Numbered from the stretch's first letter, positions 23,717 through 40,240 are shown. The stretch is DNA of 44,146 nucleotides from a virus (IMGVR_UViG_2698536573_000002), one strand, 5' to 3'. Notes: generated by a model not told the origin, from the sequence alone. Made by a program: numbers and translations.

Positions 23717-23825
23717 CAGATTTCTCCGGTTTAACCAGGGCGGGTATCGCTCGGTTTCGGGTATAACCTTAGGAAATTTTTTCCCACCTGTAAAGCACTT
23801 TTTATATAAATCTATAATTATATAA
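23717..23825 (-). repeat. ~109-bp promoter-bearing repeat, copy 1
   Basis: Near-identical to 29974-30082 and 40078-40187; contains TTTACA-17bp-TAAGGT, 5' leader and RBS. Confidence 0.85.
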
Positions 23826-23827
23826 TT

Positions 23828-24415
23828 TTATGCCACTTGCCAGAGAGCATCATGCAACTGGATACCTCCATTGCACTGGTTGCCCCAGCCATGCCAACCA
23901 TCAGGTAAATCACCGCGAGCAAACAGCTCAATACGAGGAACATCACCTAACAGCCTTACCAGCTTGTCACGAACCACATCAGGCTTCCGAGAATGCTCCA
24001 GACGAGGCGATGTAAACGACTGAATGATCCCCGCATCAAGGCGGGTCGGCAATTTGCCTTTTACCGCAAACAAGCAATCTTCACTGTTTGCACGAGTCAT
24101 ATGCCCCATCCCCATCACCAGCTTATCTGGTTGTCGGCTACCACATTTGTTCCATGTGAAGCCCTTCATGGTCATAAGCCTGAATCCCCATGCTTTCACC
24201 ACCAGCAACGCTTCTTCTGGCTGAGTCGGAACCCACCACATGGCCAACAAACACGATTCAGGATTAGCAAGCTGCCAGACAGGAATACGAGCAATATCCT
24301 CAGCTTTCATCGTTGGATACTTAAAACCAGCTCCACGATTCCCATCCTTACACTTATCTTTGTATTCCCAGGGGGGATCTGCATAAATCAGATTAAACAA
24401 TGCAATTGCCTCCAT
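23828..24415 (-). CDS. MT-A70 family DNA N6-adenine methyltransferase
   Basis: 195 aa starting ...LIYADPPWEY (DPPW catalytic motif near N-terminus). Confidence 0.75.
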   Translation of the reverse strand: MEAIALFNLIYADPPWEYKDKCKDGNRGAGFKYPTMKAEDIARIPVWQLANPESCLLAMWWVPTQPEEALLVVKAWGFRLMTMKGFTWNKCGSRQPDKLVMGMGHMTRANSEDCLFAVKGKLPTRLDAGIIQSFTSPRLEHSRKPDVVRDKLVRLLGDVPRIELFARGDLPDGWHGWGNQCNGGIQLHDALWQVA

Positions 24416-24723
24416 GTTAGTTGTGCCTCCGGCGCTTATCTCCGGCAGTCATAACGCTGGCCAGCTCTACAGCAGACACAACGAAAAGGGCACTAACCAG
24501 ACTGATTAATGCCCTTGCCTGTTGTGTGCCGGATATCGCCCGACAACGCTGTTTTGGTAACACGGCTACAGTTCCGTGCCGCTCCAGCTTTTACCCCTTT
24601 GCGGATAACAGGCCCTGCCTGTACTCACTAACCAACGGCTTCCCGAAATGTGCACCAGGCACGCATAAAGATGAGCACGAAGAAGTAACTCCACCGCGCT
24701 TATCTTTATGTGTGAGGGTGAAT

Positions 24724-24799
24724 TGGTGGCCCCTACCGGATTTGAACCGATGACCGTGCGATTATGAGTCGCCTGCTCTAACCACTAAGCTAAGGGGCC
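24724..24799 (-). tRNA. tRNA with anticodon CAT, ileX/ileY-like (tRNA-Ile2 type; Met not excluded)
   Basis: 76-nt cloverleaf: acceptor GGCCCCT/AGGGGCC, D-arm GCTTAGTGGTTAGAGC, anticodon loop CTCATAA, T-arm GGTTCAAATCC, encoded CCA. Confidence 0.8.
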
Positions 24800-24968
24800 A
24801 TATTTGATTTGTTTGTCTGGTGTGGCGCCGCGCACGAAAATCCCAGCCAATAAATTCAGGATTTTTGGGCGCGGCGGCATATCAGACAAACATGGTTGAT
24901 GCGTGCGCCCATGAGAAAAGCGCATAGAATGTTGTAACTATATATTTATATAATTATAGAAATATATA

Positions 24969-25178
24969 TTACTTTCGGCAGTTGATTTCCCATGCCCTGT
25001 TATGAGCCAGAATATCTTTCTTTGTCTGGCGGTCCATAACATCGATGTCGTGATCAGTCAGGTAGATGGGCTTTACCCAATCACAGGCGGTATCAACCAC
25101 CACCGGGACGCTTCCACGACTCCCGCAGCTCGCGATCAACATCGTCATCAGCCATATGGTTAACACTCTGCTGTACAT
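24969..25178 (-). CDS. o-spanin (Rz1-like lipoprotein)
   Basis: 69 aa with lipobox-like LIASC after hydrophobic N-terminus; overlaps 3' end of i-spanin gene in another frame. Confidence 0.5.
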   Translation of the reverse strand: MYSRVLTIWLMTMLIASCGSRGSVPVVVDTACDWVKPIYLTDHDIDVMDRQTKKDILAHNRAWEINCRK

Positions 25179-25371
25179 TCCCCACCTCTTTTGTCACTTC
25201 TATACGCCGCTCCGCAGTGGCTTTTACGGCGGCTGCATTCTCATTAATGCGCTGCTTTTCAGCTTCATCTTCGGCCTTTTCTCGCCCCTTCATACGACCA
25301 AAACCAAACGCACCGAATGCAACCAATATAACGGTGCCGATAAATGACAAAACGGCTTTCAAACCAGTCAT
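25093..25371 (-). CDS. i-spanin (Rz-like)
   Basis: 92 aa, N-terminal TM helix then charged coiled region; directly after endolysin. Confidence 0.5.
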   Translation of the reverse strand: MTGLKAVLSFIGTVILVAFGAFGFGRMKGREKAEDEAEKQRINENAAAVKATAERRIEVTKEVGNVQQSVNHMADDDVDRELRESWKRPGGG

Positions 25372-25910
25372 ACCACCACTCGCTCTTTCATCCAGCCGTA
25401 GACAAACGACTCATTAGCCTCGCGCTTCTCCGCCAGCTCCAGATAGCGTTCGCCCTGCGTACAGTTCAGCGACGTCAGCATCACCCGTTCGCCGTCTTTT
25501 CCCCGATTCCCAAGATAAGCACGTAGCGCATTAATGGTACGTGGACCGATTCGTCCGTCTGCATCCAAATCGGGATACAGCTTCCCGCGCAGGTTGAACA
25601 CATTCAGCCAGCGTTGAAGCATTTTTGACGCCACTGTTGGCCCCATGTTCACCCCCGTGTCACACAGCTCTGCGGCAATATCAGAGGATAATGCGGCCAC
25701 CTGATCAAAGCGTGGTCCGTACCAGTAATCAGCCTCAAGGATTTCCAGTGCCTGTTCGCGGGTTAAATCGCGCATATCGCCACGGTATCCATGAGCACGG
25801 GCAGTGTTCTGAGTAATGCCCCACTTTGTTGGGCCTCCCTTGTCGTCAGGGTGATCCACATAGCCGCCCTCTTTTCCAAGAACGCTGTTAAAAATCTCAT
25901 CTTTGGTCAT
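25368..25910 (-). CDS. endolysin, GH108-type lysozyme with C-terminal peptidoglycan-binding domain
   Basis: 180 aa; N-terminal LGKEGGYVDHPDDKGGPTKWGIT motif. Confidence 0.75.
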   Translation of the reverse strand: MTKDEIFNSVLGKEGGYVDHPDDKGGPTKWGITQNTARAHGYRGDMRDLTREQALEILEADYWYGPRFDQVAALSSDIAAELCDTGVNMGPTVASKMLQRWLNVFNLRGKLYPDLDADGRIGPRTINALRAYLGNRGKDGERVMLTSLNCTQGERYLELAEKREANESFVYGWMKERVVV

Positions 25911-26229
25911 GATTAAACCCTAATGCGTCAACTATCCGCGCCAGATTGCCCCTGAAATACAGAACAACGATGCAGATAATCAGATTTCCAATAACCACCA
26001 GCCAGTGGGATTCTTGATAAAGACCGAACACATAACGGAAGGGAACATTGGCGTATACAATGACGTAGATATAAGCCAGAAAGGAAACAAATGGACGATG
26101 CCTGGAGTCTTTCCGTCGATAAAGCATCAGCGCCATTACTATTACTGTGCAAAGCACCGCATTAATCAGTGCTGACGGGTCACTGCTTACCATTTGAACC
26201 CCCTCCACGTAAGCGGGAAAGCATTCCAA
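25897..26229 (-). CDS. putative holin/antiholin-like membrane protein
   Basis: 110 aa with multiple hydrophobic helices between holin and endolysin. Confidence 0.45.
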   Translation of the reverse strand: MECFPAYVEGVQMVSSDPSALINAVLCTVIVMALMLYRRKDSRHRPFVSFLAYIYVIVYANVPFRYVFGLYQESHWLVVIGNLIICIVVLYFRGNLARIVDALGFNHDQR

Positions 26230-26575
26230 AGATGCTACCGAGATCCTGGCTGTTTACGAACGTGAGGATTTTAATTGTCAATGCAGCCACAATAACCGCA
26301 CCAAGCGCATCAAGAGGACGATCGTTGTAGCTGGTCCATTTGGCAAGAAATGAGCCAACTAACGGCGCTCCAATCACTCCAACAATGAACGATGTAAAGA
26401 AATAGCCAATCAGCTTGAGACGGCTAATATTCACCGCTGTAGCAACATAGAAAACAGCGCCAGCAAATGCCCCGAATACAACGCCGTAATCAATACCAGT
26501 TGCAATACCAAAAACGCTGGCACCCATCAGGCCACCAGCAGCAACGGCCGTACCGGAAATTGGTTCTGCTGACAT
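26180..26575 (-). CDS. putative holin
   Basis: 131 aa, highly hydrophobic, first gene of lysis cassette; RBS GAGGA 7 nt upstream. Confidence 0.5.
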   Translation of the reverse strand: MSAEPISGTAVAAGGLMGASVFGIATGIDYGVVFGAFAGAVFYVATAVNISRLKLIGYFFTSFIVGVIGAPLVGSFLAKWTSYNDRPLDALGAVIVAALTIKILTFVNSQDLGSIFGMLSRLRGGGSNGKQ

Positions 26576-26588
26576 TGAAATCCTCGTT

Positions 26589-26620
26589 AAAAAAAAAGCC
26601 CCGCCGAAAAAGGCAGGGCT
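26589..26620 (-). terminator. intrinsic terminator immediately upstream of holin
   Basis: Minus-strand hairpin (agccctgcc/ggcggggct) followed by 9 U; ends ~14 nt before holin start. Confidence 0.55.
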
Positions 26621-26905
26621 TCATAAAGCAACAAATTACGCGGTAATCGCTTAACGCAGTTTTACTACGTTAAATGAAACACTACACCCAGTTACCACCT
26701 AAAACAAGGTTTCCCCATAAAAAAACCTTCACAATGTGGTTAATCGATCGATAAAAAAACAATACTTAACTTTTGACCAACCGAACATCCCGACCAGGAC
26801 TTCCATAATATTCGCCGATATGCCACTGCTTAAGTTGAGTAATCTTCTCCAACTTAACTCCCATAGAGTCCAGTTTCTGCCATGTTTTCGGTTGTATGTG
26901 CTTCA

Positions 26906-27265
26906 TTACCCGCTCTGAATATCTGAATACTGCTCGTAAGCGCATGGATTCTCACTACAGCTTATCCAACCACCCGGAGTTACCGAAACTGGCGGCGCGG
27001 CATATAGCTTACGGGTCTGAACACCTGCCCCCTGACATTTCTCTTCCTCAACAAACCATTCGAAAGCACATTCCCCGCAATCTTCCCATTCTCCCCATTC
27101 ATCATATTCTGCATCCCACTGGCGATACTGATATGCCACCGGTTCTGCTTCCAGCAAGGCTAACGCTATTTCATAAGCCCGGCGCTCAATATTGTCTCGC
27201 ACATCCAAGCGGCCTATGCGCTCTTTGATTTCTTTAATCAGTTCTTTGTCGGTAAAAGTGGTCAT
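26906..27265 (-). CDS. hypothetical Cys-containing acidic protein
   Basis: 119 aa ORF; CGEC...C motif. Confidence 0.3.
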   Translation of the reverse strand: MTTFTDKELIKEIKERIGRLDVRDNIERRAYEIALALLEAEPVAYQYRQWDAEYDEWGEWEDCGECAFEWFVEEEKCQGAGVQTRKLYAAPPVSVTPGGWISCSENPCAYEQYSDIQSG

Positions 27266-27471
27266 TTGTTAATCCTCAAAACTTTATGCCCGGGCGCAAA
27301 AGCACGCGTTTTGTCTTTGCTTATTCGCCAGCCATCCTTGCGCGCCTCTTTTGCACAGCCAGCCCATGACGTACCGATATACTCACCGAAGTCTGGCACT
27401 GGATATACACCTTCCGTACACTGGCGGCAGTCACAATAGAGATGCATGGTGTAACTTGCGGCAATAGCCAT
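27262..27471 (-). CDS. hypothetical small Cys-rich protein
   Basis: 69 aa, CDCRQC motif. Confidence 0.3.
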   Translation of the reverse strand: MAIAASYTMHLYCDCRQCTEGVYPVPDFGEYIGTSWAGCAKEARKDGWRISKDKTRAFAPGHKVLRINK

Positions 27472-27472
27472 A

Positions 27473-28036
27473 TCATTCTCCTTTGATGCGAATACCAGCA
27501 GCGCGGATTGCAGCGATGACTTCAGAAACTTTGTATGCCATTACCGTTTGGTAATCCTCGTGAAAATCTGTTCGATGAAGCATGCTGCTACGTTCTGGGA
27601 GCGATATTTCCCGTGCTTCCAGTTCTGCAATGCGCTTCTCTGCGGATTCCAACGCCGCAACCAATTCGTCTACAGTTCCGGCAGCTTGCAGTGCGTAATC
27701 GGTAATAGCCATCTCATGATCAATTTCAGTACCGTTCTCATTCGTTGAGGTGATAGCAAAATAATCAGAGTCGATTTCGTTATCAGCTAAGTGGCGTAGC
27801 GTATCGGCAACAAGCCGGCCGTTTTCGATTAGCAGCTTCCCTACCGTAAGCGCAATATCCTCGTTCTCCTGGTCGCGGCGTTTGATGTATTGCTGGTTTC
27901 TTTCCCGTTCATCCAGTAGTGCCAGCATAACCTGAGGTGTGACTTTCATACGAAATGCCAGCAATTTTTGAGGCGTTGCTACTGTTTCAATTGCTACTGC
28001 TGCCTCACGCAGTGCCTGATAGTTAATCTCACTCAC
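27473..28036 (-). CDS. hypothetical protein
   Basis: 187 aa ORF, coupled to neighbours. Confidence 0.3.
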   Translation of the reverse strand: MSEINYQALREAAVAIETVATPQKLLAFRMKVTPQVMLALLDERERNQQYIKRRDQENEDIALTVGKLLIENGRLVADTLRHLADNEIDSDYFAITSTNENGTEIDHEMAITDYALQAAGTVDELVAALESAEKRIAELEAREISLPERSSMLHRTDFHEDYQTVMAYKVSEVIAAIRAAGIRIKGE

Positions 28037-28550
28037 TGATTGCTCCCCCGCAAACCAATCCTGAACGGATTACCGTTTTTACAATATGCGCCCGTAATTG
28101 TTGCGTTCCGTGGTACTTGATTGCCACATCGCGTAACTTATTAACCAGTTCCCTGACCTGATGTTCCTTTGCTTCCTGTGTCACAGGAATAATTCCAGCT
28201 CTCCGCCGTTCCTGAAGTTCCAGCATTGCGGCCCGGAAATCCTGCCACCATTCCTCATCGGCTACTGGGGTGTTCCGCTCCAGCACCTTGTCCGCATCGG
28301 CGATCAGGTTTGACAGACTCTTGTCTGAAATCTTCGTTACCGGAGTCGTTGGTTGCTCAACCTGCCCGATAGGTTTTATCGTGCTCAAAAGGAGGCGACG
28401 GCGGGAAAGTGGTGCCCCACAACGACGGCCATCTTCCTTGCGATATGTTTCTTTCGGACCAACACACCAGGTTGTCGGCGTTTCGCGTAACTTCACTCTT
28501 TTCTCACCATCATTGGTAATGATTATTCCGGTATGGGTTTTGATGCTCAT
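28029..28550 (-). CDS. hypothetical protein
   Basis: 173 aa ORF. Confidence 0.3.
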   Translation of the reverse strand: MSIKTHTGIIITNDGEKRVKLRETPTTWCVGPKETYRKEDGRRCGAPLSRRRLLLSTIKPIGQVEQPTTPVTKISDKSLSNLIADADKVLERNTPVADEEWWQDFRAAMLELQERRRAGIIPVTQEAKEHQVRELVNKLRDVAIKYHGTQQLRAHIVKTVIRSGLVCGGAISE

Positions 28551-28828
28551 GCCACAGCCCCTCTCAACGGCTTTACTTTGGCTAATAAGGTGTTAAACAA
28601 CATGGAGTTAGGATTCATGCCAAATGGCAATTCCGGTTTAGCGGAGTAGTACAGGCAACCATTTATTTTCCTGGTTGTTATCTGTCCTTCGGCAACCATG
28701 CTTCTCAGTCTGCAACGCATAGAGTTCTGCGACACACCAATGTGTTCCGCGATTACGTCCACTTTTGAACATGGGTGATCGGTCAGGAAATTAATCACAT
28801 CTTGGGGGTTAATAATTTTGCGTTTCAT
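28547..28828 (-). CDS. putative winged-helix DNA-binding protein
   Basis: ORF 28547-28849; start at 28828 (MKRKI) preferred, AAGGA 11 nt upstream; AT-rich motif just upstream. Confidence 0.4.
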   Translation of the reverse strand: MKRKIINPQDVINFLTDHPCSKVDVIAEHIGVSQNSMRCRLRSMVAEGQITTRKINGCLYYSAKPELPFGMNPNSMLFNTLLAKVKPLRGAVA

Positions 28829-28905
28829 TGTCGAGGCGTCCTTATACATTTATATAAATATATAATTCTATATACGGCGGGAGACATCCCGCCGTAGGCT
28901 TACTG

Positions 28906-29973
28906 TCAGGCTTTCAATAGCGATTCTTTCAGATATCGGGCATCAGCCAGGGCGTTTGGAGTAATCTTGCGAACCCATGCATTACGGGTTGGACTCCACT
29001 TAAAGGCGCGTGATTTAAGCAGCGAACGAATGTTTGCCTCTGGTTTGCCAGGGAAATAAAACAGGATGCGGTTATCCTCTGGATCTATCTCCATAGAAAA
29101 GCCGTCGTATTCTTCGCGCTGTGCTCCTGTTACAGACTTGACCGATTCAAGCTCCTTAATACGGCTCTGTAGTCGTTTGATTTCGGCATTATTGTTACTC
29201 AGTGAGTATGAAGGGAAGCCAATGTGCCCACAGAAATCTCCGGCGAGTAACCCTTTGGCTTCGCTTTCAGTAAACTCAAGGTCAATTAATGCGGAAAGCT
29301 GCTGTAATTGGTCTTTTTTGTATTTGCGAATAGCCTTATTTGCGGCCTTCATTTTGATGTGTGACTTCATGCAGCCTTGCAGCTTACGAAGCAACTTAAA
29401 TAGCGCATCAGGATCATCAGACGAAACTCCATTACGGCCGACACCTGCGGCTTTGCTTTCGTAGTACGATGCTCTGCTTTCACACTCAACAAACGATTTT
29501 CTGAATAACGCATCAGCTTTAGACAAACGGCGGCGATGGCCTTTCGCGCTATAATGGTCAACTAAAATCGGCTGGCCTAACGGGATCACATCCAACAGTT
29601 CATGCGCTCGCTTATGCGCCACCGCACCTTCTTTTCTGGCTTTTTCTGCACGAGCAATATATCGGGCAAGACGCGCGTTCTGGCGTTCCTGATAGGTATT
29701 TACGTAATCATCTCCGCGCTGCTGCTGTTCAAGCCATGCTTTGCGCAGCTTTTCTGTTACGTCTACCAACTCTGCAGGGATACAACCTGTTTGGGATTCA
29801 TAAGAGTGACCATCCTCATAAAGACGTCCATCGTCTTCAACAACGAAAAAGGTTTCGTGCTCATCGCTTTTGACCATACGGCCATTAACATGACGTAATC
29901 TATAGCCAGTATCAGTGCTCAACAGGCTGTTAGGGTTGTTGATCCAGTCAGAAATAATTACTTGTTTATTCAT
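28906..29973 (-). CDS. hypothetical protein (355 aa), first gene after repeat copy 2
   Basis: ORF 28906-30123; start at 29973 (MNKQV) preferred because it is the ATG closing the conserved repeat. Confidence 0.45.
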   Translation of the reverse strand: MNKQVIISDWINNPNSLLSTDTGYRLRHVNGRMVKSDEHETFFVVEDDGRLYEDGHSYESQTGCIPAELVDVTEKLRKAWLEQQQRGDDYVNTYQERQNARLARYIARAEKARKEGAVAHKRAHELLDVIPLGQPILVDHYSAKGHRRRLSKADALFRKSFVECESRASYYESKAAGVGRNGVSSDDPDALFKLLRKLQGCMKSHIKMKAANKAIRKYKKDQLQQLSALIDLEFTESEAKGLLAGDFCGHIGFPSYSLSNNNAEIKRLQSRIKELESVKSVTGAQREEYDGFSMEIDPEDNRILFYFPGKPEANIRSLLKSRAFKWSPTRNAWVRKITPNALADARYLKESLLKA

Positions 29974-30082
29974 CAGATTTCTCCGGTTTAACCAGGGCGG
30001 GTATCGCTCGGTTTTGGGTATAACCTTAGGAAATTTTTTCCCACCTGTAAAGCACTTTTTATATAAATCTATAATTATATAT
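29974..30082 (-). repeat. ~109-bp promoter-bearing repeat, copy 2
   Basis: One mismatch vs copy 1 over ~105 bp; -35 tgtaaa at 30046-30051, -10 acctta at 30023-30028 (plus-strand coordinates). Confidence 0.85.
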
Positions 30083-30143
30083 TTATAGATTTTCCGATAT
30101 TCCCGGTGCCTACAAATCACCAAAACAGCTCAAAATGACACTT

Positions 30144-30521
30144 TCATTCTCTTCTCTTTTTCAAGTAGTCGACAACATACGCCCTGGCTTTTGCCAGCTT
30201 CCGGCGATACTGTCTGAGACTAAGAGAAAGGGCGTGGGCTTTATCAATATGCGGTGCATTTATGTCGAGGCCCCGAATCTCCCACGCCCCGTATTCAATT
30301 CGGACAACCAGCGCCGCAGTCTCATCAACTACCGTGAGGGCCGTCACCGCTCCCTCGATACTGGTTTCCAGTGAGTCATTTGGTGCGCCGCCCCCTCCGG
30401 TAAACTGGCAACGCGTAACCATCATCATTTCTAACATCGACGCGAAACCGCTACGGGCGTTGCAGCCATTGCGCACCCACAGCGCCCATAGCTCAAACAA
30501 GCTATCCAGATCGCGTCTCAC
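30144..30521 (-). CDS. putative Q-like antitermination protein
   Basis: 125 aa, GTG start overlapping upstream stop (GTGA); N-terminal LFELWALWVRNG resembles Q of 82/21 type as I recall it; last gene of early operon, followed by a promoter repeat. Confidence 0.4.
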   Translation of the reverse strand: MRRDLDSLFELWALWVRNGCNARSGFASMLEMMMVTRCQFTGGGGAPNDSLETSIEGAVTALTVVDETAALVVRIEYGAWEIRGLDINAPHIDKAHALSLSLRQYRRKLAKARAYVVDYLKKRRE

Positions 30522-30524
30522 TGT

Positions 30525-30857
30525 TCAGATCTCCCGTATCGTGACGGGATAAAGCGCCTCTACCTGCTTTTTCTTCATGATGTAGACGTCTGTTCGCACA
30601 CCTTTAGTGTCGACACAATCAATCGTCCCATCGTCATAAAACACCATGAAATCAAGTTTATAAACGACACCACCTGGCAGATGAAAAGGCACCTGCATAA
30701 GAAACGTCACAACGCGGCCAGCTTTTCTCAGTAGCTTCAGTTCGCAGTAGTAATCAGCCTCTTTTTTGCTATCAAAAGCGATATCATCGACAACCGTTTT
30801 TTTATTGCCGTATTTGCTTTTTCTGGTCGCTGGTTTGCGAAAGCCGGTATATCTCAT
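30525..30857 (-). CDS. DUF1064-family phage protein
   Basis: 110 aa with YGNKKTVVDDIAFDSKKEADYYCELKLL motif. Confidence 0.55.
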   Translation of the reverse strand: MRYTGFRKPATRKSKYGNKKTVVDDIAFDSKKEADYYCELKLLRKAGRVVTFLMQVPFHLPGGVVYKLDFMVFYDDGTIDCVDTKGVRTDVYIMKKKQVEALYPVTIREI

Positions 30858-32494: not shown

Positions 32495-32512
32495 TTAACT
32501 AACTCCAGTTAA

Positions 32513-32629
32513 ACCACGATATGTGGTATTAAAACCACAAATCGTGAGTTTTTCAATGGGAAAACAAAAAATAACCTTCTATTTGTGGTCTACCTCTCGT
32601 CTTGCCGTGTGAAAACCACTAAATGTGGT
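32513..32629. promoter_or_regulatory. immunity-region operators, consensus ACCAC-N5-GTGGT
   Basis: accacgatatgtggt 32513-32527, accacaaatcgtgag 32534-32548 (imperfect), half-site gtggt 32585-32589, accactaaatgtggt 32615-32629, between divergent regulator genes. Confidence 0.6.
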
Positions 32630-32666
32630 AATGTATAAATAACCCCCCATTCACGATTGATGAGAA

Positions 32667-33329
32667 ATGAAAAGCAACGACGAGAACATCAAGAAAGAAA
32701 TAGGTCTGCGCATTCAGACTCTACGGAAACAATCCGGCATGACTGCCGGAGATCTCCAGCAAGTCACTGGAATAGGCTTAAGCACCTTGCAGAACTATGA
32801 GGCCGGATTAAGACAACCATCTATACCTGCCATCAAGAAAATCGCGCACGCCCTGAAAGCATCAGCGCCTTATATCGCGTGCTTAACAGATAACCCGTTC
32901 CCACCCCAGAATACTAACGCTCCTGTTATTCCTGGGCTTGTAGCTATAAAAAATGACATAGCATCGCACGCCGGAGAAAAGCCAGTGCTGGCGATAGAAC
33001 AGGAGATTCTACGAAGCAAGAACATCAACCCATCGTCTCTGTCTGTTCTCCAGAGCAACGATGAGCTAAAGCTAATGTCACCAACAATATCCCCTGGCTC
33101 CCAAGTCCTGATTAATACAGACGATACAGAGATTCATGAGGGGATCTATGCCCTTGAAGACAGAAATGGCCTGGTTGTTTTGAGGCACTGTAGAGTCATA
33201 CCGGGTGACAATGCTGTTATGCTGTCAACCGAAAGGGATGCTGAAATGAACACTAAGCATCTGAATAACGAGGAATTTAAGCGTTATAAAGTTCTTGGCC
33301 GCGTAGTTAGTGTTGTCAACTGGTTATGA
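32667..33329 (+). CDS. CI-like prophage repressor (XRE-type HTH with LexA/S24-like C-terminal domain)
   Basis: 220 aa; N-terminal HTH (LRKQSGMTAGDLQQVTGIGLSTLQNYEAG), C-terminal domain with Ser/Lys candidates (LMSPT ... KVLGRVV). Confidence 0.65.
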   Translation: MKSNDENIKKEIGLRIQTLRKQSGMTAGDLQQVTGIGLSTLQNYEAGLRQPSIPAIKKIAHALKASAPYIACLTDNPFPPQNTNAPVIPGLVAIKNDIASHAGEKPVLAIEQEILRSKNINPSSLSVLQSNDELKLMSPTISPGSQVLINTDDTEIHEGIYALEDRNGLVVLRHCRVIPGDNAVMLSTERDAEMNTKHLNNEEFKRYKVLGRVVSVVNWL

Positions 33330-33371
33330 TACACAGCACGGCGAAAGCCGTGCATTTCTACGCTCAAAAAA

Positions 33372-33386
33372 ACCACGCTTTGTGGT
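33372..33386. promoter_or_regulatory. additional ACCAC-N5-GTGGT operator downstream of repressor gene
   Basis: accacgctttgtggt, perfect half-sites. Confidence 0.5.
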
Positions 33387-33421
33387 TTTGACAACATGAA
33401 AAAGTATAAAAGAGGCTACGC

Positions 33422-33796
33422 ATGGAATTACATACAGCCAATAAAAACGAAACTCTGATCACTGCTGGAATCGAAATCCAAGCGTTGAACATAGCGATTG
33501 AGTGTATGTTATGCCAACTCATTGATAATGAGAAAGATATCGACTGGATAGAATCTATCCTTCATCTGGCATCAGAACAAAAAGTCTGCCTCAAAACGGC
33601 CTTACAATACGATGTGCCAGCGATATCGAAGCTGTGCCAGCCATTGATGGCATATAACAGGGCTATTATTTCTGTATGCCTCATGATTCTCGATGAAAAC
33701 ACCCCTCTTAGCGACCGCTCAGAAGCTGCTCTAACCCTCTCACGTAAACAGCGACAGCTAGCAAATCAACTGATATCAACGATAGCTGACCTCTGA
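33422..33796 (+). CDS. hypothetical protein adjacent to repressor gene
   Basis: 124 aa, RBS AAGAGG 7 nt upstream; followed by hairpin at ~33802-33819. Confidence 0.4.
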   Translation: MELHTANKNETLITAGIEIQALNIAIECMLCQLIDNEKDIDWIESILHLASEQKVCLKTALQYDVPAISKLCQPLMAYNRAIISVCLMILDENTPLSDRSEAALTLSRKQRQLANQLISTIADL

Positions 33797-33820
33797 CTGC
33801 AAGCGGGCTAACGCCCGCTT

Positions 33821-33930
33821 ATATGATTATAGATTTATATAATTATATAAAACACTTTTCATCCGCCAAAAAGTTGGTTATGCTTACCTCATTCTATAAA
33901 TATAGATTTATAGAATTATATAATCAAACA
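33821..33930. repeat. clustered AT-rich palindromic motifs upstream of parA (candidate centromere/operator)
   Basis: tatgattatagatttatataattatataa and tataaatatagatttatagaattatataa; same core as in the three promoter repeats. Confidence 0.5.
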
Positions 33931-33946
33931 CATGGAGTCTCGACAA

Positions 33947-34600
33947 ATGACTATATCTGTAGGTATTTTCAACGGAAAAGGCGGCGTAACCAAATCAACC
34001 ATTGCTCGTGCTTTAGCAGTTGCTTATGCAAAGGCTGGCTGGAATGTATGCCTGATCGATATGGATGTGCTTAACGGAACGGTAACGCGTTGGGTACAAC
34101 GCAGAATGGCCAACAATATCGAACCTGCAATCGCGGCGCAGCCGTGCGGCACGCCATCACAAGTCCAGAAAATCATCGAATCAGAAGTATACGACCTGGT
34201 TATCGTTGATGGCGGTGCCTACGCATCTGAATCAGTACCGAAGCTCTCTGAATTTCTGGATATGGTTATTTTGCCAACCAGATTCTCTACCGATGACCTG
34301 GAAACCACCGTTAACACAGCTCACGGCATCGTTAAAAAGGGTGTACCAATCAAGAAAATTTGCATGGTGTTTTCCGGCGCGGCTGAAAACGAAGCTGACT
34401 ATATTGAAGCCCAAGAGTACCTGGCTAATACGCCATACTTTGTTGTCGATAAGTACATTCCCCACAAGCCAGCTCTGAGCAAAGCTCAGGATAAAGGCTT
34501 AAGCCTCATTGAGTGCTCATACGTTGCGCCACGCAAAAAAGCAGACGACGTTATTCAGGGGATTATCAACCAGCTTGAGGCTCTGACTACTGCCGCGTAA
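33947..34600 (+). CDS. ParA/ParF-type partition ATPase
   Basis: Deviant Walker A GIFNGKGGVTKST; start at second ATG (GGAG 9 nt upstream); ORF from 33932. Confidence 0.8.
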   Translation: MTISVGIFNGKGGVTKSTIARALAVAYAKAGWNVCLIDMDVLNGTVTRWVQRRMANNIEPAIAAQPCGTPSQVQKIIESEVYDLVIVDGGAYASESVPKLSEFLDMVILPTRFSTDDLETTVNTAHGIVKKGVPIKKICMVFSGAAENEADYIEAQEYLANTPYFVVDKYIPHKPALSKAQDKGLSLIECSYVAPRKKADDVIQGIINQLEALTTAA

Positions 34601-34643
34601 TATATAATTATAGTTTTATAGATTTATATAAGAGAGGATACAC

Positions 34644-34892
34644 ATGGCCGCACCATCAAAACCACCAAAGAAGAACAGCAAAGGCGTACCGCCATCGATC
34701 GAACAACCGCAGGTTTTCGACCCGACTGAAACGCCAGCCAGAACCAAATCAGGTGGGGCACAAATGGCGTTTAACGTCGACCCTGAATTTAAACGCGAGT
34801 ACAAAACGTTCGCCAGCTCAATGGATATGTCATTGAAAGAAGTGCTAACAAAATCTTTTGAGTTACTCAAGGCTCAATACAACCAGAAGTAA
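34644..34892 (+). CDS. ParG-like ribbon-helix-helix partition protein
   Basis: 82 aa, unstructured basic N-terminus then RHH-like MAFNVDPEFKREYKTFASSMDMSLKEVL; RBS GAGAGGA. Confidence 0.55.
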   Translation: MAAPSKPPKKNSKGVPPSIEQPQVFDPTETPARTKSGGAQMAFNVDPEFKREYKTFASSMDMSLKEVLTKSFELLKAQYNQK

Positions 34893-34954
34893 GAGAAGGT
34901 GACGGCCTCCAGCGCCAACTGTTGGCCGTAGCGACACAACAAGGGGAATTTGTT

Positions 34955-35104
34955 ATGTCCGAGCAACAATATACACGGTTACTGAAAACTCGTCTAACCG
35001 ACCTCAAACGGCTGCAAGCTGGTCGCTTATTTGCCCTGCTATCCACCAGGCCAGCATGGGTACGTGAAGCAGTTCTGAAAGGCTTAATGCGCTCCAGCGT
35101 TTAA
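34955..35104 (+). CDS. hypothetical small protein downstream of par genes
   Basis: 49 aa from internal ATG with AGGGGA RBS. Confidence 0.25.
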   Translation: MSEQQYTRLLKTRLTDLKRLQAGRLFALLSTRPAWVREAVLKGLMRSSV

Positions 35105-35112
35105 ATTCAACC

Positions 35113-35136
35113 ATAAAAAAGGCCCCCGAAGGGGCC
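35113..35136 (-). terminator. intrinsic terminator (minus-strand orientation)
   Basis: ggcccc-cgaa-ggggcc hairpin followed by U6 on minus strand, directly after small ORF 35143-35265. Confidence 0.5.
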
Positions 35137-35142
35137 TAATCG

Positions 35143-35265
35143 CTACTTGCTGCTAATGTTTATCGTCACATTCAGAGCGTTATCAGTAATCTTCCAACCC
35201 TCTCCATGTGGCGTAAACAAAGCCCCAGTAACAACGATAAAAATACACATGTAGTATTTTTTCAT
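35143..35265 (-). CDS. small hydrophobic peptide (40 aa)
   Basis: MKKYYMCIFIVVTGALFTPHGEGWKITDNALNVTINISSK; RBS AAGGG; own terminator. Confidence 0.35.
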   Translation of the reverse strand: MKKYYMCIFIVVTGALFTPHGEGWKITDNALNVTINISSK

Positions 35266-35655
35266 TGTGTGGCCCTTACAGGCCGTTTCACGGCATCCCC
35301 ACCGACGAAAATGACGCGAGAGCAAGCACGCTGTTTGTGCCTGCGTGGTACGGCAAGTGGATAATCCTTTCCTGAAAGTCAGTGCCCGGGTGCGAATCGG
35401 CGGAAAGGCCCCAAGCCATATTACACGTCATACCCTTCATAATGAAGGAATAAAAAACGCTTTTATTACATGAGATTACACGTAAATAAGTTAAAAACCT
35501 TCATTTTGCATGAGCTAATGAGCTAAATTTTTTTATATGAATAGTGGACTATTCACCTCAGTTAGGTAAGAATGTAGTTGCTGTTTGTGCTTGCGTGGTT
35601 GTATTAGTACAACGACGTTATGCTGAAAGGACCGCGAATCCGATCAGCACGAAAG

Positions 35656-35685
35656 AACCGTCCTCAATAGGGCGGTTTTTTTGTT
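35656..35685 (+). terminator. intrinsic terminator (plus-strand orientation)
   Basis: aaccgtcc-tcaata-gggcggtt followed by T8. Confidence 0.45.
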
Positions 35686-35695
35686 TCTTCACTCA

Positions 35696-36235
35696 TTAAA
35701 ACAGTCCAAGACCTGTTAATGGCTTCTGATAATCTCGATTATTCATATCAGCGCCGTTATCGACCCAATTTCTATATGCTTCATCGCAACAATACATTAC
35801 AGCAGTTGGAGTATCTGGGATGCCGCCCCCAAATGAGAATCCCATTGAGCTAATGCTAACTCTTTCTAATGGCCTATTTCTCAATGCTTCAAACCCCTTG
35901 CTATTAAAGTAACGCAGCATCAGAGGTAAAAGGTTATCCTCGTCCTGACTGATTGTTCCAGGGAAAAAGTAGTAACCATAACGGTTAAATTCGGGAATAA
36001 GATTTTCTACCAATGACATGAAATTCACTGGAGTAATATTAAGGGCTGTGAAAGCACCAAAAAGGGCGTCAACTGTTAATACAGACTGCCCGTTCTCTAT
36101 CTTTGTCCATGCGTTTGGTGTTTTTCCAGCAGCTTGAGCCAGTACTCCTTGATGCACACCTCTTTCTAGCCTAAGTTCTTTTATGATCATTAGGTGAATT
36201 GTTGAAAAACATGAGTTTTTTGACTGTTCAATCAT
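35696..36235 (-). CDS. XRE-type HTH protein with uncharacterised C-terminal domain
   Basis: 179 aa; HTH IKELRLERGVHQGVLAQAAGKTPNAWTKIENGQ; RBS GGGGA. Confidence 0.45.
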   Translation of the reverse strand: MIEQSKNSCFSTIHLMIIKELRLERGVHQGVLAQAAGKTPNAWTKIENGQSVLTVDALFGAFTALNITPVNFMSLVENLIPEFNRYGYYFFPGTISQDEDNLLPLMLRYFNSKGFEALRNRPLERVSISSMGFSFGGGIPDTPTAVMYCCDEAYRNWVDNGADMNNRDYQKPLTGLGLF

Positions 36236-36372
36236 TTTTTATCCCCATATTGAATTTTTTCTTTGTTCCCAACTTTAACAAAACACCACAACTTAGGAAT
36301 ATATAGTTCCTTAAATGAATCATACATTCCCACCTTCGGTATATCAAGAAAATTAAAAGCTCGGCATTCAAA

Positions 36373-36387
36373 CCCACACTATGTGGT
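36373..36387. promoter_or_regulatory. ACCAC-N5-GTGGT-like operator upstream of antirepressor operon
   Basis: cccacactatgtggt (9/10 half-site match). Confidence 0.45.
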
Positions 36388-36419
36388 TGTCTCTGTTAAA
36401 ATCCCGCCGTATTGACATA

Positions 36420-36521
36420 AATGCGCCATTGGTGGACACTTTCCGAGCCGTAGCAAAATCTACGGTCGGGATTGGAACCCCGATAATCATCATGGCGCAT
36501 ACCGCGTTAGCGGTTTTTTTA
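36420..36521 (+). ncRNA. candidate small regulatory RNA (c4-like) upstream of antirepressor operon
   Basis: TTGACA at 36412-36417; terminator accgc-gtta-gcggt + T7 at 36501-36520; short elements complementary to leader near 36603-36634. Confidence 0.3.
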
Positions 36522-36685
36522 TGCGTAAAGCACTGCTACACCCAAATTATGGTGGGGCGTGCGGGGGAGTCGTAAGACTCGCCGGATTCCATGGTGACCG
36601 GTAGTTCCAACCCTGTACGTCTCACCACCCAATGATTGGAACCAGACGGTGGTGAGTATCCTTAACCTTTAAGGGAACTATCACC

Positions 36686-36877
36686 ATGACAAACCTACCC
36701 CATGACTATTACGTCAACCTCGTAAAGATCCTTCTCAAGAAAGCCTCATACGCCGATAAATTCCGCCTGGCTGAAATCATCGAGCGCGAAGCTATGCGCA
36801 TCGCCAGCAACGATAACGCTGTTTCTGTCGCAAAAATCTCCCTCGTAACCAAAGTAGTTATGGGAGGTGCAAAATGA
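36686..36877 (+). CDS. small leader protein translationally coupled to antirepressor (icd-like position)
   Basis: 63 aa; stop TGA overlaps ant ATG (ATGA); RBS AAGGGA. Confidence 0.45.
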   Translation: MTNLPHDYYVNLVKILLKKASYADKFRLAEIIEREAMRIASNDNAVSVAKISLVTKVVMGGAK

Positions 36878-38055
36878 AAACGCTTCCGACCGTTAACACC
36901 CTACAGCCTATCCTGCATAACCAGCTCCCCGTTATCACTACTGAACTACTGGCGCAATTGTATGGAACCGAGCGCCAACGTCTGACAAACAATTTCAATA
37001 GAAACAAGGAACGTTTTATAGAAGGTAAACACTTTTTTAGGATAGAAGGTAAAGAGTTACGAGAGTTGAAGAACAAAAACTCTTTAAGAGTTCCTGTGAG
37101 AGTAGTTAACGAACCATCTTTAAGAGGGTTACAAATTCCCCCGAAAGTTCGCTCCCTCATCCTCTGGACAGAACGCGGGGCTGCACGTCACGCCAAAATG
37201 CTTGAAACTAACCAAGCGTGGGATGTGTTCGAACGGCTGGAAGACAGCTACTTCAACCAGAACGCACAAACGGCCGCGACCGTAACCGTCTCACCAAACA
37301 ATGCTCGTGAGGTTGTCGATACGCTCAACGCCAAACCAATGTATTACGTTAAGGTGTGCAACAACGAGCCACTCACAACCTCAGCCGATGTAGCCCAGGC
37401 ATTCAGCACCACAAACAATTCCATCGTTATGGCCATCGATGCATTACGCATTCCTCGCACAGCTGCGGCACGTCATTTCTTTAAAGAGCAACGACCGCTG
37501 GAAGGAAGCGACCGCGAAATAACAATCTATCGCATGACAAAAGACGGATTTACCTTGCTCATGGAAAGTATCGACGGTCCAGGCGTGAAGGATATCAAGC
37601 TGGCCTACATTGAAGCCTTTAACGCTATCAGCAGCGTGTTAAAGGCAGAATACGAGCGAATGCTATACAACCGACTGTATCAGGAAACAAAGATTATCCG
37701 AACGGCAACAGAACATCATCGGCTATTAACGGAACCAAACTACCGCAAGACACTAATCAAAGAGTTTGACAAGGCGACGGAGAAAACTAAAGCGGCACTA
37801 AATCTACCAACAATGACTAAAGATGATGTGATATCAGCCTTACTTCTTGATCTGCTCAGAAACGTCAGAGCACTTATCAGTTTTGACGAAAACCTGAATC
37901 CTCAGCTCAAGCTACTACCACCGACAGGCAAAGTAGTCGACCAAGCAGATCACAACAGCATACTCAGCGTACTGGATGCAAACCTGCCAGCCAGGACACT
38001 ACAGGAGCTGATAAAAATATCTGCGGATAAACTGGCCGCAGGTGCAAAACCATAA
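36874..38055 (+). CDS. antirepressor (ORF6N/KilA-N-like N-terminal domain plus Rha-like domain)
   Basis: 393 aa; N-terminal LPVITTELLAQLYGTERQRLTNNFNRNKERF and central MYYVKV...TIYRMTKDGFTLLM blocks. Confidence 0.6.
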   Translation: MKTLPTVNTLQPILHNQLPVITTELLAQLYGTERQRLTNNFNRNKERFIEGKHFFRIEGKELRELKNKNSLRVPVRVVNEPSLRGLQIPPKVRSLILWTERGAARHAKMLETNQAWDVFERLEDSYFNQNAQTAATVTVSPNNAREVVDTLNAKPMYYVKVCNNEPLTTSADVAQAFSTTNNSIVMAIDALRIPRTAAARHFFKEQRPLEGSDREITIYRMTKDGFTLLMESIDGPGVKDIKLAYIEAFNAISSVLKAEYERMLYNRLYQETKIIRTATEHHRLLTEPNYRKTLIKEFDKATEKTKAALNLPTMTKDDVISALLLDLLRNVRALISFDENLNPQLKLLPPTGKVVDQADHNSILSVLDANLPARTLQELIKISADKLAAGAKP

Positions 38056-38057
38056 AA

Positions 38058-38090
38058 CAAAGCGCCCGATTTGGGCGCTTCTTCAATTCT
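38058..38090. terminator. bidirectional intrinsic terminator between convergent genes
   Basis: agcgccc-gattt-gggcgct flanked by T-rich tracts on both strands. Confidence 0.5.
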
Positions 38091-38725
38091 TAATATTTCG
38101 GTGTAATCAGTAGCGATACATGCCCTGATTTGTCACGAGAAACGTAATACTCGCCTCTCTTAGTCTTGAACTCAGCTTTCTGCATATCTGATTTAACAAT
38201 CTGCTCTAACTGCGCAATCACGGTGTCTCTTTCACTTGACGCATCCAAGACTTCAACTGCTACGGCCATAGAAAGCAAGGAATCAGAGTTAGGCTTGGAT
38301 ACTCGCCATAATAACTCAGAAATCTTCCCATCCTTATCAACTCTAGCCCGACCGTTAACAGATGAGTTGATGGCAAATTCAACGGTGTTATTACCTTGTT
38401 TAACAGACTTAATTCTTATAGTGGAGGTGGCTTTTCCTGATGTAGCGATGCCTTCAAGGTCATCATTATATAACTGCTTAAACTTATCTACGGTCACACC
38501 ATCAAAAGCAGCTCCGGTAGTAGCCGCAGTGTTGGAGTCTTCTGGGATCAAGGTCACAGCCGCAAGAGTATTAACAACTACAAAAGTAGCAATCCCGAGA
38601 AAGCCACTCACTAAAACAGCTTTGAACTTACCACCAGAAGACGAGGCACATTGTTTCCGATATGCGCCACGAACTACGAAGAAACACAAAATCAGGCTAA
38701 TAATAAACGCCACCAGCATCCCCAT
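38090..38725 (-). CDS. membrane protein with two N-terminal TM helices
   Basis: 211 aa; hydrophobic segments then soluble domain; RBS AAGGAG. Confidence 0.45.
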   Translation of the reverse strand: MGMLVAFIISLILCFFVVRGAYRKQCASSSGGKFKAVLVSGFLGIATFVVVNTLAAVTLIPEDSNTAATTGAAFDGVTVDKFKQLYNDDLEGIATSGKATSTIRIKSVKQGNNTVEFAINSSVNGRARVDKDGKISELLWRVSKPNSDSLLSMAVAVEVLDASSERDTVIAQLEQIVKSDMQKAEFKTKRGEYYVSRDKSGHVSLLITPKY

Positions 38726-39290
38726 AGAAATCTCCTTTTAGATATAAGGGTAAAGCAATATCGTATTAGATCTTCCTTAAGACACAACCCCCCCTCCCCC
38801 CATACAGGGTGCCCTTTACCGGAGTTCCGGCCCCTTCTCAAAAGCATCAAAAAAAGCTCGAGATCGAGTACCGGAACTCATGCCACCAGATAGCTCCACA
38901 TCGTTTCCAATGCTTCGCCGCCGTGTGCGCCCTGTGGCCCACAATCATGCCATTGGTCGTCTGATATACCTTCTTCTGCTCATTGAGCACAGGCGAGTTG
39001 TCGCACTCCTGCCTTTCTCAGACTCGACTTAGTTTAGATCGCTGTTCCTGGCTTGCGTCAGCACACTTTCCCCTTGTACGCATACCCGCGCGCCACTTCG
39101 CCCAAAAACACCGAACCCAACGAAGTAGCAAAGACAACGACGCGAGCGTGAGTCTGAAACGTGCACCAGTAAAAAAGGGGTTGCAGGCGCAAAAAGATTT
39201 GATTATCTTTAGACGCAAGAAAGCCGCCCCAATCAAGAGGTGTCTTTTTAAATCCAGCCTACCAAGCAAGATTTAAATTTCAGACTGAAA

Positions 39291-39320
39291 ACCGCCCGGC
39301 AAGGCGGTTTTTGTCTTTCT
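39291..39320 (+). terminator. intrinsic terminator (plus strand)
   Basis: aaccgcc-cggcaa-ggcggtt followed by TTTTTGTCTTTC. Confidence 0.5.
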
Positions 39321-39360
39321 GGCGCTTACATTACACCACCATAAAACGATCCGTAAAGGA

Positions 39361-39633
39361 TCATTTGATCTCTTGTTCCAATTCTGACGACACTTTAACC
39401 TTTTCCCATACAAGGGTTTGCAGCCTTAACAGAATCGCATCTTTATCAAGGTGTGAAAGATCCTTAACCATATCGTCAAATGACAGAACGCGAATGGCCA
39501 TCTCAATGACCCTCGGCGGCTCCCCCTTCTCATATCGCTTATATGTAGCCAACGATATCCCAAATTCTTCGGCGGCTCGCTCCTGCGTCCAGTTCATCCC
39601 ACGACGCCATAATTTCAATTCATAACCCGTCAT
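39361..39633 (-). CDS. XRE-family HTH protein
   Basis: Start at MTGYEL (GGAGG 5 nt upstream); LKLWRRGMNWTQERAAEEFGISLATYKRYEKGE. Confidence 0.55.
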   Translation of the reverse strand: MTGYELKLWRRGMNWTQERAAEEFGISLATYKRYEKGEPPRVIEMAIRVLSFDDMVKDLSHLDKDAILLRLQTLVWEKVKVSSELEQEIK

Positions 39634-39696
39634 AGCATCCTCCTCGCACAATATTAACACTCGCAAAGTGTCAAAATGACACTTTGCGTATTGTGT

Positions 39697-40077
39697 TTAC
39701 TTAACGAGGAATAAAAATGGTTTATTGTTCGGCGGTGTAATCGGAGCTGGCTCGCTTTTGCTCATGCGATCAGTGTACCAGGCCAGCTCCTTGTCAAAGT
39801 AAGCCTGATTAAAATAGGCAATGAATGTAGTTTCAAATCCATAACGACCGCTAATACGCAGCATCTGATTGCCGTTCTCTGTTTCCAGATATACCTGGGC
39901 ACGTTCCTGATTCTCCTTCAGCCAGGTTAAAGCCTCATCGCACGAGGACACACGATACTCATCATCGTAGCCGTCATCGATGCGGCTTGAAGAAGAACGG
40001 CAAATCACGCCAACAGAACCAGCCAGGATAGTTTGAATTTTAAGGAAAGCGTTTTTGCGGATTTTAATCATGCTCAT
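39697..40077 (-). CDS. hypothetical protein, first gene after repeat copy 3
   Basis: 126 aa; ATG at 40077 closes the conserved repeat. Confidence 0.4.
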   Translation of the reverse strand: MSMIKIRKNAFLKIQTILAGSVGVICRSSSSRIDDGYDDEYRVSSCDEALTWLKENQERAQVYLETENGNQMLRISGRYGFETTFIAYFNQAYFDKELAWYTDRMSKSEPAPITPPNNKPFLFLVK

Positions 40078-40187
40078 CGGGTTATCTCCGGTTTAACCAG
40101 GGCGGGTATCGCTCGGTTTCGGGTATAACACTAGGAAATATTTTCCCACCTGTAAAGCACTTTTTATATAAATCTATAATTATATAA
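40078..40187 (-). repeat. ~109-bp promoter-bearing repeat, copy 3
   Basis: About 95 percent identical to copies 1 and 2; same -35/-10 spacing. Confidence 0.85.
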
Positions 40188-40240
40188 TTCCATGAGCACA
40201 AAAAAGCCCCTTTGCAACAGGGGCTTATCATTCGTTCTGA

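Follow-up and report, generated by a model that had tools for sequence, protein, structure and literature searches.

Three direct repeats in a 44,146-nucleotide stretch of viral DNA (IMGVR_UViG_2698536573_000002, the whole of which is called the window here) are very probably complete KorC-controlled expression modules, members of the family of the klcA, kleA and kleC 'kil' promoters of IncP-1 plasmids, carried in this case by a phage-plasmid. Repeat finding and alignment over the window placed the copies at 23704-23830, 29961-30087 and 40066-40192. Each contains a cassette of about 112-120 bp which occupies an intergenic gap and, like the genes surrounding it, is read on the minus strand; it starts directly behind the upstream gene's stop codon or terminator and ends precisely on the start codon of a gene on this strand (ATG at 23716, 29973 and 40077, respectively). 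Over the core from the -35 hexamer to the ATG, identity is 99% between copies 1 and 2 and 92-93% between either of them and copy 3; the flanks of the three copies are dissimilar on both sides. The original prediction, made from the sequence of the window, of three near-identical cassettes of promoter and ribosome-binding site, each ending at a start codon, was borne out. TTTACA, a 17-bp spacer, TA(A/G)(G/T)GT, a leader of about 45 nt and GGAGA were found in every copy as had been described, and the genes behind the copies are indeed unrelated, encoding an 89-amino-acid (aa) protein, a DUF3560 protein and a 126-aa protein.

The repeats are genuine and not an assembly artefact, a possibility raised at the outset, because the same three copies recur in E. 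coli genomes, PLSDB plasmids and Yersinia phage records. The three-copy set was present in 72 out of 74 matching complete E. coli genomes (median of 3 per genome), in which 214 of 217 cassette places are on plasmids, and three Yersinia phage records and 65 PLSDB plasmids, the latter from Escherichia, Salmonella and Klebsiella, also had the same three copies. The window itself is most of an E. coli phage-plasmid of about 48 kb, of which E. coli ATCC 25922 carries a 48.5-kb relative.

In the minus strand the cassette is composed of a TATA-box array, 7 bp, the -35 hexamer TTTACA, the 17-bp spacer, the -10 hexamer, the leader, the Shine-Dalgarno (SD) sequence GGAGA and, after 6-8 nt, the ATG (Table 1). 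The array of each cassette has three or four 8-bp units (TTATATAA, TTATAGAT). The promoter is sigma-70-like (TTTACA-17-TAAGGT), with the -10 variants TAGTGT in copy 3 and TATGGT in many relatives, T-A-n-n-n-T being kept throughout. Within the spacer lies a 17-bp palindrome, T(A/G)GGAAA-N3-TTTCCTA, which has the form TGGGAAA-AAA-TTTCCTA in E. coli and TAGGAAA-ATA-TTTCCTA, with perfect 7-bp arms, in all three copies of the Salmonella relative.

The same design is found in conjugative plasmids. The klcA and kleA regions of the IncP-1beta plasmid R772 contain near-identical promoter-leader-ribosome-binding-site cassettes, each ending at a different ATG, and the window cassette is identical to the kleA cassette of R772 in 61 out of 87 nt (z = 12.6, 2000 shuffles). 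The blocks common to both are AAAGTGCTT(G/T)ACAGG, CCTAA, GCCC(A/T)GGT and ACCGGAGAAA..C.GATG. Upstream of klcA and kleA, R772 has the 17-bp palindromes TAGGACATTTTGCCCTA and TAGGGCATTTTGCCCTA between TTGAC(G/A) and TATAGC; its operator, TAGGGCA-TTT-TGCCCTA, takes the same position as the palindrome of the window cassettes, a -35/-10 geometry shared with L136 and with IncL, IncU and Neisseria plasmids. Scans with the 14-mer AGTGCTTTACAGGT (viral contigs) and with a gapped pattern (genome contigs) gave mostly chance matches, and a profile filter was applied. The joint profile of R772 and the window groups finds cassettes at E <= 1e-16 in several IncP-1 lineages, and in a distant IncP plasmid three cassettes at E 6.5e-7 to 1.6e-4, located before DUF905, klcA and DUF2688 genes. 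An IncL plasmid of the pOXA-48 type carries a cassette before a JAB-domain gene followed by its korC, an RA3-like IncU plasmid has cassettes before orf02 and klcA, and in a Neisseria conjugative plasmid promoter and operator are present, with a short leader and no hairpin.

The window also encodes a KorC homologue. Over 80 aa this 95-aa protein has 51% identity with KorC of R772 (E 4e-23), and its plasmid relatives number thousands, the closest ones being annotated KorC. Of the inner palindrome GGAAA-N3-TTTCC the window has exactly four copies, three in the cassettes and one at 41739-41751, where a fourth promoter, located ahead of the korC homologue, bears the perfect operator TAGGAAAAGATTTCCTA (41737-41753) in the same register as in the cassettes; through it korC is presumably autoregulated. 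The Salmonella relative has a KorC orthologue, 72% identical, and the same four operators, all with perfect arms. From lineage to lineage the operator arms vary (GGGCA, GGACA, GGCCA, GGATA, and GGAAA in the window), and what stays constant is the length, the TAGG...CCTA ends, the 3-bp centre and the 2-bp overlap with the start of the -10 hexamer. Because of the homology to the KorC-repressed promoters of IncP-1 we infer that the window cassettes are KorC-repressed sigma-70 promoters. Two other regulators were considered. The helix-turn-helix (HTH) protein of about 90 aa encoded in the cassette-3 operon was set aside as operator binder in favour of the KorC homologue because its relatives are generic Xre regulators with no link to KorC, and the CI-like repressor of the phage-plasmid was rejected as cassette controller, its presumed ACCAC-N5-GTGGT operators being elsewhere and none inside a cassette.

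What KorC does is known from several conjugative plasmids. In RP4, KorA and KorC keep the basal expression of klcA very low (PMC7314908, citing Thomas 1988; Kornacki 1990, 1993), and when the plasmid enters a new cell klcA is induced about 120-220-fold and kleA-F 20-50-fold (PMC7314908). KorC acts as the chief global regulator of RA3 (PMC7414963), and pOXA-48, the maintenance of which requires korC, has a predicted KorC site between the -35 and -10 of the orf24-korC promoter (PMC12365149).

By analogy, host RNA polymerase would start about 7 nt past the -10 hexamer of the cassettes, and a dimer of the KorC homologue on the 17-bp palindrome would block it, because the palindrome fills the spacer between -35 and -10 and overlaps the first two -10 bases. 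The fourth promoter, having the same palindrome, would produce KorC and so enable it to limit its own level. In the established plasmid state three operons would be off, i.e. the 89-aa gene, the DUF3560 gene with its downstream genes, and the 126-aa gene with the HTH gene. Entry into a KorC-free cell, either by phage infection or by transformation, would lead to a burst from all three, which would parallel the zygotic induction of klcA and the kle genes in RP4. In place of the KorA operator, the array adjoining the -35 would provide a second layer of control, being probably coated by a ribbon-helix-helix (RHH) protein of the parA operon, and this coating would tie the cassettes to the partition system. 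Lying 2-3 nt away from the predicted 5' end, the leader hairpin probably has an effect on how stable the mRNA is or how well it is translated, and gene conversion would keep the copies alike.

The second layer is suggested by what stands in the position of the KorA operator. The homology between IncP-1 and the window starts at AAAGTGC, just downstream of the KorA operator, and the array fills the position of that operator. No KorA or KorB homologue was found in the window, and the KorA operator (OA, GTTTAGCTAAAC) is not present beside the -35. The IncL cassette and the two RA3-like IncU cassettes are likewise without OA, a feature peculiar to the IncP-1 subgroup and no mark of KorC promoters in general. 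The window has eight arrays of three or more TATA boxes in 8-bp period, against 0.02 expected. The unit is a 4-bp TATA box with a 4-bp AT-rich spacer, in direct and inverted orientation, and the arrays are located in the three cassettes, twice around the parA promoter, and once each before the 82-aa gene, the 100-aa gene and the tRNA-Met gene.

The candidate binder of these arrays is the 82-aa protein encoded after parA. In its AlphaFold2 model residues 1-45 are disordered and two helices follow, at a mean predicted local distance difference test (pLDDT) score of 65; 14 of its 44 relatives match Pfam RHH_10 weakly and 10 match Antitox_RHH, and its family profile aligns in register with ParG (1p94) at a non-significant E of 0.8. 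A PDB sequence search with the 82-aa, 126-aa and DUF3560 proteins gave no matches. The RHH protein ParG of TP228, which has flexible tails, coats arrays of 4-bp boxes with 4-bp AT-rich spacers, and these arrays are centromere and operator both (PMC3130281). A second case of co-occurrence is offered by L003 (NZ_CP037908.1), an unrelated, cfr-carrying conjugative plasmid of 28.5 kb, which has a homologous ParA (45%) and small protein (40%) with arrays ahead of each of these two genes and one more within its type IV secretion operon; the backbones of L003 and of the window have in common only the Par pair and a toxin-antitoxin module. Since ParG coats similar arrays, and in view of the co-occurrence in L003 and the RHH matches, we propose with moderate confidence that the 82-aa protein binds the arrays and acts as second repressor in KorA's stead. 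The third L003 array (11987-12014) is located between virB10 and virB9, which hints that the Par-linked small protein of this plasmid may also regulate transfer genes. At 1444-1491, L003 also has an array with the front half of a cassette; its sequence matches that of the window at 100% and is interrupted in the KorC operator by an IS26 terminal repeat (GGCACTGTTGCAAA).

Alternatively, the arrays could be UP elements, targets of H-NS-type silencing or sites for another protein encoded by the element, for which the 124-aa protein upstream of parA and the 100-aa FaeA-like protein are candidates. Their extreme AT-richness, their position next to the -35, where UP elements act, the weak fold assignment of the 82-aa protein and the array directly before the 100-aa gene would agree with this. 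The strict 8-bp register, the conserved TATA box and the direct and inverted units are unlike generic AT tracts, however, arrays are found around the parA promoter and before the small gene on two unrelated backbones, and the arrangement matches the ParG/OF/parH design. We therefore regard these alternatives as possible but doubtful.

The leader contains a hairpin (23733-23756 in copy 1) which starts 2-3 nt past the predicted transcription start. Single leader sequences fold with z = -2.4, and RNAalifold independently recovered the same hairpin from 17 non-redundant leaders of phage-plasmid, IncP-1 and distant IncP origin. In this set 95% of the hairpin cells are paired, against at most 50% with slid partners, and two switches are two-sided (G-C to or from A-U, and C-G to or from U-A). 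Addition of IncU and IncL leaders gave a similar result, with 94-95% of cells paired across sets. The support which these compensatory changes give to a conserved structure is real but modest. No Rfam family matches the leader at either gathering or permissive thresholds. Antisense control by the C4, isrK or ryfA RNAs resident in the window was rejected; their pairing with the leader does not surpass that with shuffled leaders (z = +0.4, -1.1 and +0.5, respectively).

It could be argued that the leader is the functional core of the repeat, as a cis-acting RNA serving as translational operator, as protein or small RNA site or as processive antitermination signal. In favour of this, the hairpin and its compensatory changes extend from the IncP-1, IncU and IncL plasmids to the window, it lies close to the predicted 5' end, and leader and SD are identical within one plasmid and different between plasmids. 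The KorC promoter of the Neisseria plasmid has no hairpin, so that a hairpin is not needed for KorC control; the fold score is only -2.4, and neither an Rfam family nor complementarity to the resident RNAs was found. An RNA function of this kind, which we consider rather unlikely as the core of the repeat, would add to the explanation by KorC control and not replace it.

The copies within one element evolve in concert. Those of Salmonella are 100% identical to each other and 86-89% identical to any E. coli copy, sharing substitutions in array, operator and hairpin loop and around the start site, and their TATGGT -10 also occurs in some copies of the E. coli family. The cassette-driven genes of the Salmonella and E. 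coli elements are 54-74% identical. Likeness of cassettes within a replicon is also seen in R772, L136 and the RA3-like plasmid, and homogenisation by gene conversion appears to be the simplest explanation.

This homogenisation requires recombination, and homologous cassettes precede klcA, kleA, DUF905, DUF2688, orf02 and JAB-domain genes across plasmid groups. Both would be expected of repeats serving mainly as recombination substrates, be it as portable cassettes for gene swapping or as sites of deletion or rearrangement. We nevertheless give this little credit: the same three orthologous genes follow the repeat in all phage-plasmid relatives, the conservation of promoter, operator, hairpin and SD suggests selection on expression, and no site-specific recombinase is associated with the repeats. 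The proposal that the repeats are hotspots for cassette exchange therefore stood in one part, as the copies recombine and are homogenised in each genome, and failed in the other, as comparison of related genomes disclosed no different genes behind the repeat and no exchange within the family. Exchange holds only over deep time, with different genes behind the homologous cassettes of IncP, IncU and IncL plasmids.

The original prediction had also taken the cassettes for phage late promoters dependent on a Q-like gene before copy 2. The gene in question (30144-30521, minus strand) encodes a 125-aa protein without detectable similarity to Q: searches gave no Q, Pfam or PDB signal, its PHROG has no assigned function, its matches are hypothetical proteins in Vibrio, Aliivibrio and Pseudomonas phages, and a weak similarity to the NCBIfam PA0613 family (E 2.5e-4) is far below the cut-off. 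Between copy 1, said to precede the packaging and morphogenesis genes, and the terminase gene lie two small genes, a strong terminator and about 5 kb of other genes. In the cassettes the leader lacks a terminator, and accessory genes follow directly. No cassette stands before the lysis genes; these are found behind a 330-bp non-coding gap (26576-26905, minus strand), which ends in a strong terminator (26595-26622) only about 20 nt before the first holin ATG, in a layout like that of lambda pR'-tR'; the genes just upstream of this gap differ between relatives. The gap is the more likely site of late control of the antitermination type. That the cassettes are late promoters, switched by a Q-like antiterminator or by a late activator reading the spacer palindrome or the leader, is highly improbable, even if they are co-directional with the lysis and morphogenesis genes, have several intrinsic terminators downstream that would suit antitermination and contain a palindrome, centred near -19, that could in principle bind an activator, since they precede accessory genes and not lysis or head genes, the lysis genes have a control gap of their own, and the cassettes are homologous to the KorC-repressed klcA and kleA promoters on an element that encodes a KorC homologue with its own copy of the site.

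Several observations weigh against KorC-controlled kil-type modules or parts of this explanation. The -10 hexamers TAAGGT and TAGTGT are weak (3/6 matches) and a consensus promoter scan did not list the cassettes, whose promoters may thus be weak or in need of help. The operator of the E. coli cassettes has one mismatch in its left arm, TGGGAAA in place of TAGGAAA. The covariation of the hairpin amounts to about two or three independent events between lineages, and inside the phage-plasmid family the stem is unchanging. The link between the arrays and the 82-aa protein is drawn from co-occurrence and a weak fold (pLDDT 65; ParG E = 0.8). Finally, L003 has a cassette fragment yet no KorC, though that copy has been severed by IS26.

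A wider picture can be drawn more tentatively. The phage-plasmid may have taken over the kil-kor logic, so that upon infection the three operons would give a burst and then be silenced by KorC and the partition-linked RHH protein. The TATA arrays would be centromere and global operators at once, and the 5' hairpin-SD leader, seen from IncP-1, IncU and IncL plasmids to the phage-plasmid, would represent an undescribed post-transcriptional element of KorC regulons. Taken as a whole we consider this picture speculative.

Table 1. Cassettes, KorC locus, arrays and associated genes in the window, in nucleotide positions of the window.
Feature	Coordinates	Strand	Details
Cassette 1	23714-23825	minus	array 23802-23825 (3 units); -35 TTTACA 23789-23794; operator TGGGAAAAAATTTCCTA 23770-23786 (KorC-type); -10 TAAGGT 23766-23771; hairpin 23733-23756; SD GGAGA 23723-23727; ATG 23714-23716
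Cassette 2	29971-30090	minus	coordinates of cassette 1 + 6257; array 30059-30090 (4 units); -35 30046-30051; operator 30027-30043; -10 30023-30028; hairpin 29990-30013; SD 29980-29984; ATG 29971-29973
Cassette 3	40075-40187	minus	array 40164-40187; -35 40151-40156; operator TGGGAAAATATTTCCTA 40132-40148; -10 TAGTGT 40128-40133; hairpin 40095-40118; SD 40085-40089; ATG 40075-40077
Intrinsic terminator	40204-40226		immediately upstream of cassette 3
Fourth promoter	41733-41761	minus	TTGCCA (41756-41761), 17 bp, TACCAT (41733-41738); without array or long leader
korC homologue, 95 aa	41419-41706	minus	behind fourth promoter; presumed repressor at the four palindromes
89-aa gene, phrog_6143	23447-23716	minus	first behind cassette 1; followed by a 66-aa gene, then terminator 23205-23228
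DUF3560 protein gene, 355 aa	28906-29973	minus	first gene behind cassette 2
126-aa gene, phrog_8090	39697-40077	minus	first gene behind cassette 3
Xre/RstR-like HTH gene, ~90 aa	39361-39633		follows the 126-aa gene
Arrays at parA promoter	33820-33847 and 33893-33923		bracket promoter-like TTTTCA-17-TATGCT upstream of parA; presumed centromere/operator
ParA-type ATPase gene	33932-34600	plus	type Ib, distantly ParF-like
Array, 4 units	34601-34631		directly before SD of the 82-aa RHH-type gene
82-aa protein gene	34644-34892	plus	disordered N-terminal tail, then probable ribbon-helix-helix; candidate array binder
Array	28843-28872		after a hairpin, directly before SD of the 100-aa gene (28547-28849, minus)
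Array, 4 units	24939-24966		about 140 bp upstream of tRNA-Met (24724-24799, minus)

The window contains genes for RepA, a ParA-type partition ATPase, a RelE/HTH toxin-antitoxin pair and a CI-like repressor, a P1-like immI region (isrK, C4 antisense RNA and antirepressor), lysis genes and a P2-like contractile tail. Its assignment to the 'pSLy3' group of phage-plasmids was wrong, pSLy3 belonging to the SSU5 supergroup. Relatives of the DUF3560 protein are encoded on conjugative plasmids in 234 of 438 records, and some are labelled ArdC-like by their depositors.

Other features of the window were recorded alongside. ACCAC-N5-GTGGT palindromes, which look like operators of the window's CI-like repressor, are located at 32513-32527, 32615-32629, 33372-33386, 36373-36387 and 43364-43378, with eight matches at up to one mismatch against 0.6 expected. 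They are found in the divergent cI/early region and, with one site each, immediately upstream of repA and before the immI-like locus, so that control by the lysogeny repressor may extend to plasmid replication and to the antirepressor locus. The P1-type immI module (36447-38055, plus strand) comprises an isrK-like RNA (36447-36520), a C4 antisense RNA (36545-36632), a 63-aa icd-like open reading frame and a 393-aa ORF6N/Rha antirepressor. A full-length match to ryfA RNA (134.7 bits; 35115-35413, minus strand) lies between the partition genes and a 179-aa HTH gene. The tRNA-Met, with a CAT anticodon, is found between the lysis genes and an MT-A70 methyltransferase gene and has a terminator downstream (24486-24516); relatives annotate this tRNA either as tRNA-Met or as tRNA-Ile. 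In the tape-measure gene (5027-7819) three 45-nt repeats at 5478-5762 (minus strand), spaced by 120 bp and 67-71% identical, correspond to a 40-codon period in the protein. A 557-bp non-coding gap (19116-19672) upstream of the ParB/Srx-like and terminase genes, in which no cassette, KorC operator or TATA array was found, could contain the packaging site or another late control region.

These data indicate that promoters repeated along a phage genome are not necessarily late promoters; in this case they are probably plasmid-style repressible ones. The KorC circuit of the IncP-1, IncU and IncL resistance plasmids would extend to a widespread 48-kb phage-plasmid of E. coli and Salmonella; our literature search did not turn up any description of a phage-plasmid with a KorC regulon. 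If the genes behind the cassettes are in fact expressed in a burst on entry, they are candidates for anti-restriction or establishment functions. The leader hairpin and the homogenisation of promoter copies within a replicon are possibly general to KorC regulons, and the arrays suggest that a partition-linked small protein can replace KorA as second repressor.

Among known systems, lambda pR'/Q is similar in having a promoter, then a leader, with same-strand terminators further downstream. The window differs by the lack of a Q homologue and of an in-leader terminator, by cassettes which are not placed before lysis or head genes, and by a module which is homologous to repressor-controlled plasmid promoters. 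The partition side resembles ParG and parH-OF of TP228 and omega of pSM19035: the gene of a ParA-type ATPase is followed by that of a small, tailed, probably RHH protein, at whose own promoter 4-bp boxes, some direct and some inverted, alternate with 4-bp AT-rich spacers, as for ParG, and further arrays are found at other promoters around the replicon, as for omega. The box is TATA here, in contrast to ACTC for ParG or the 7-bp heptad for omega, and the similarity to ParG is non-significant.

RA3 (IncU) and pOXA-48 (IncL) share with the window a KorC homologue and a palindromic site between -35 and -10, through which KorC of RA3 acts at many promoters across backbone modules and that of pOXA-48 at an autoregulated operon, and the RA3-like and IncL cassettes have leader hairpins homologous to that of the window. 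Their operator cores are different (TAGGCCA... and TAGGACA...), and these regulons concern, unlike the one described here, replication, stability and transfer modules of conjugative plasmids.

The closest likeness is to the kil promoters of IncP-1, namely klcAp, kleAp and kleCp of RK2/RP4 and klcAp and kleAp of R772, with homology from just above the -35 to the ATG. Shared with them are the 17-bp TAGG...CCTA palindrome with its 3-bp centre, which fills the spacer and overlaps the -10, a homologous repressor (51% identity to KorC of R772), the presence on one replicon of several near-identical copies with a different gene's ATG at the end of each, a second operator adjoining the -35, the leader hairpin and the CCGGAGA ribosome-binding site. 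The inner operator bases are GAAA/TTTC here and GGCA/TGCC there, the KorA operator is replaced by the 8-bp TATA-box array, the replicon is a tailed phage-plasmid and not a conjugative plasmid, the genes driven (89-aa, DUF3560 and 126-aa) are neither klc nor kle, and korC, which in IncP-1 is part of the klcA operon, has its own promoter. The cassettes are thus of a kind already known, the KorC-controlled kil-type cassettes of broad-host-range plasmids, with an array in the style of ParG in place of the KorA operator.

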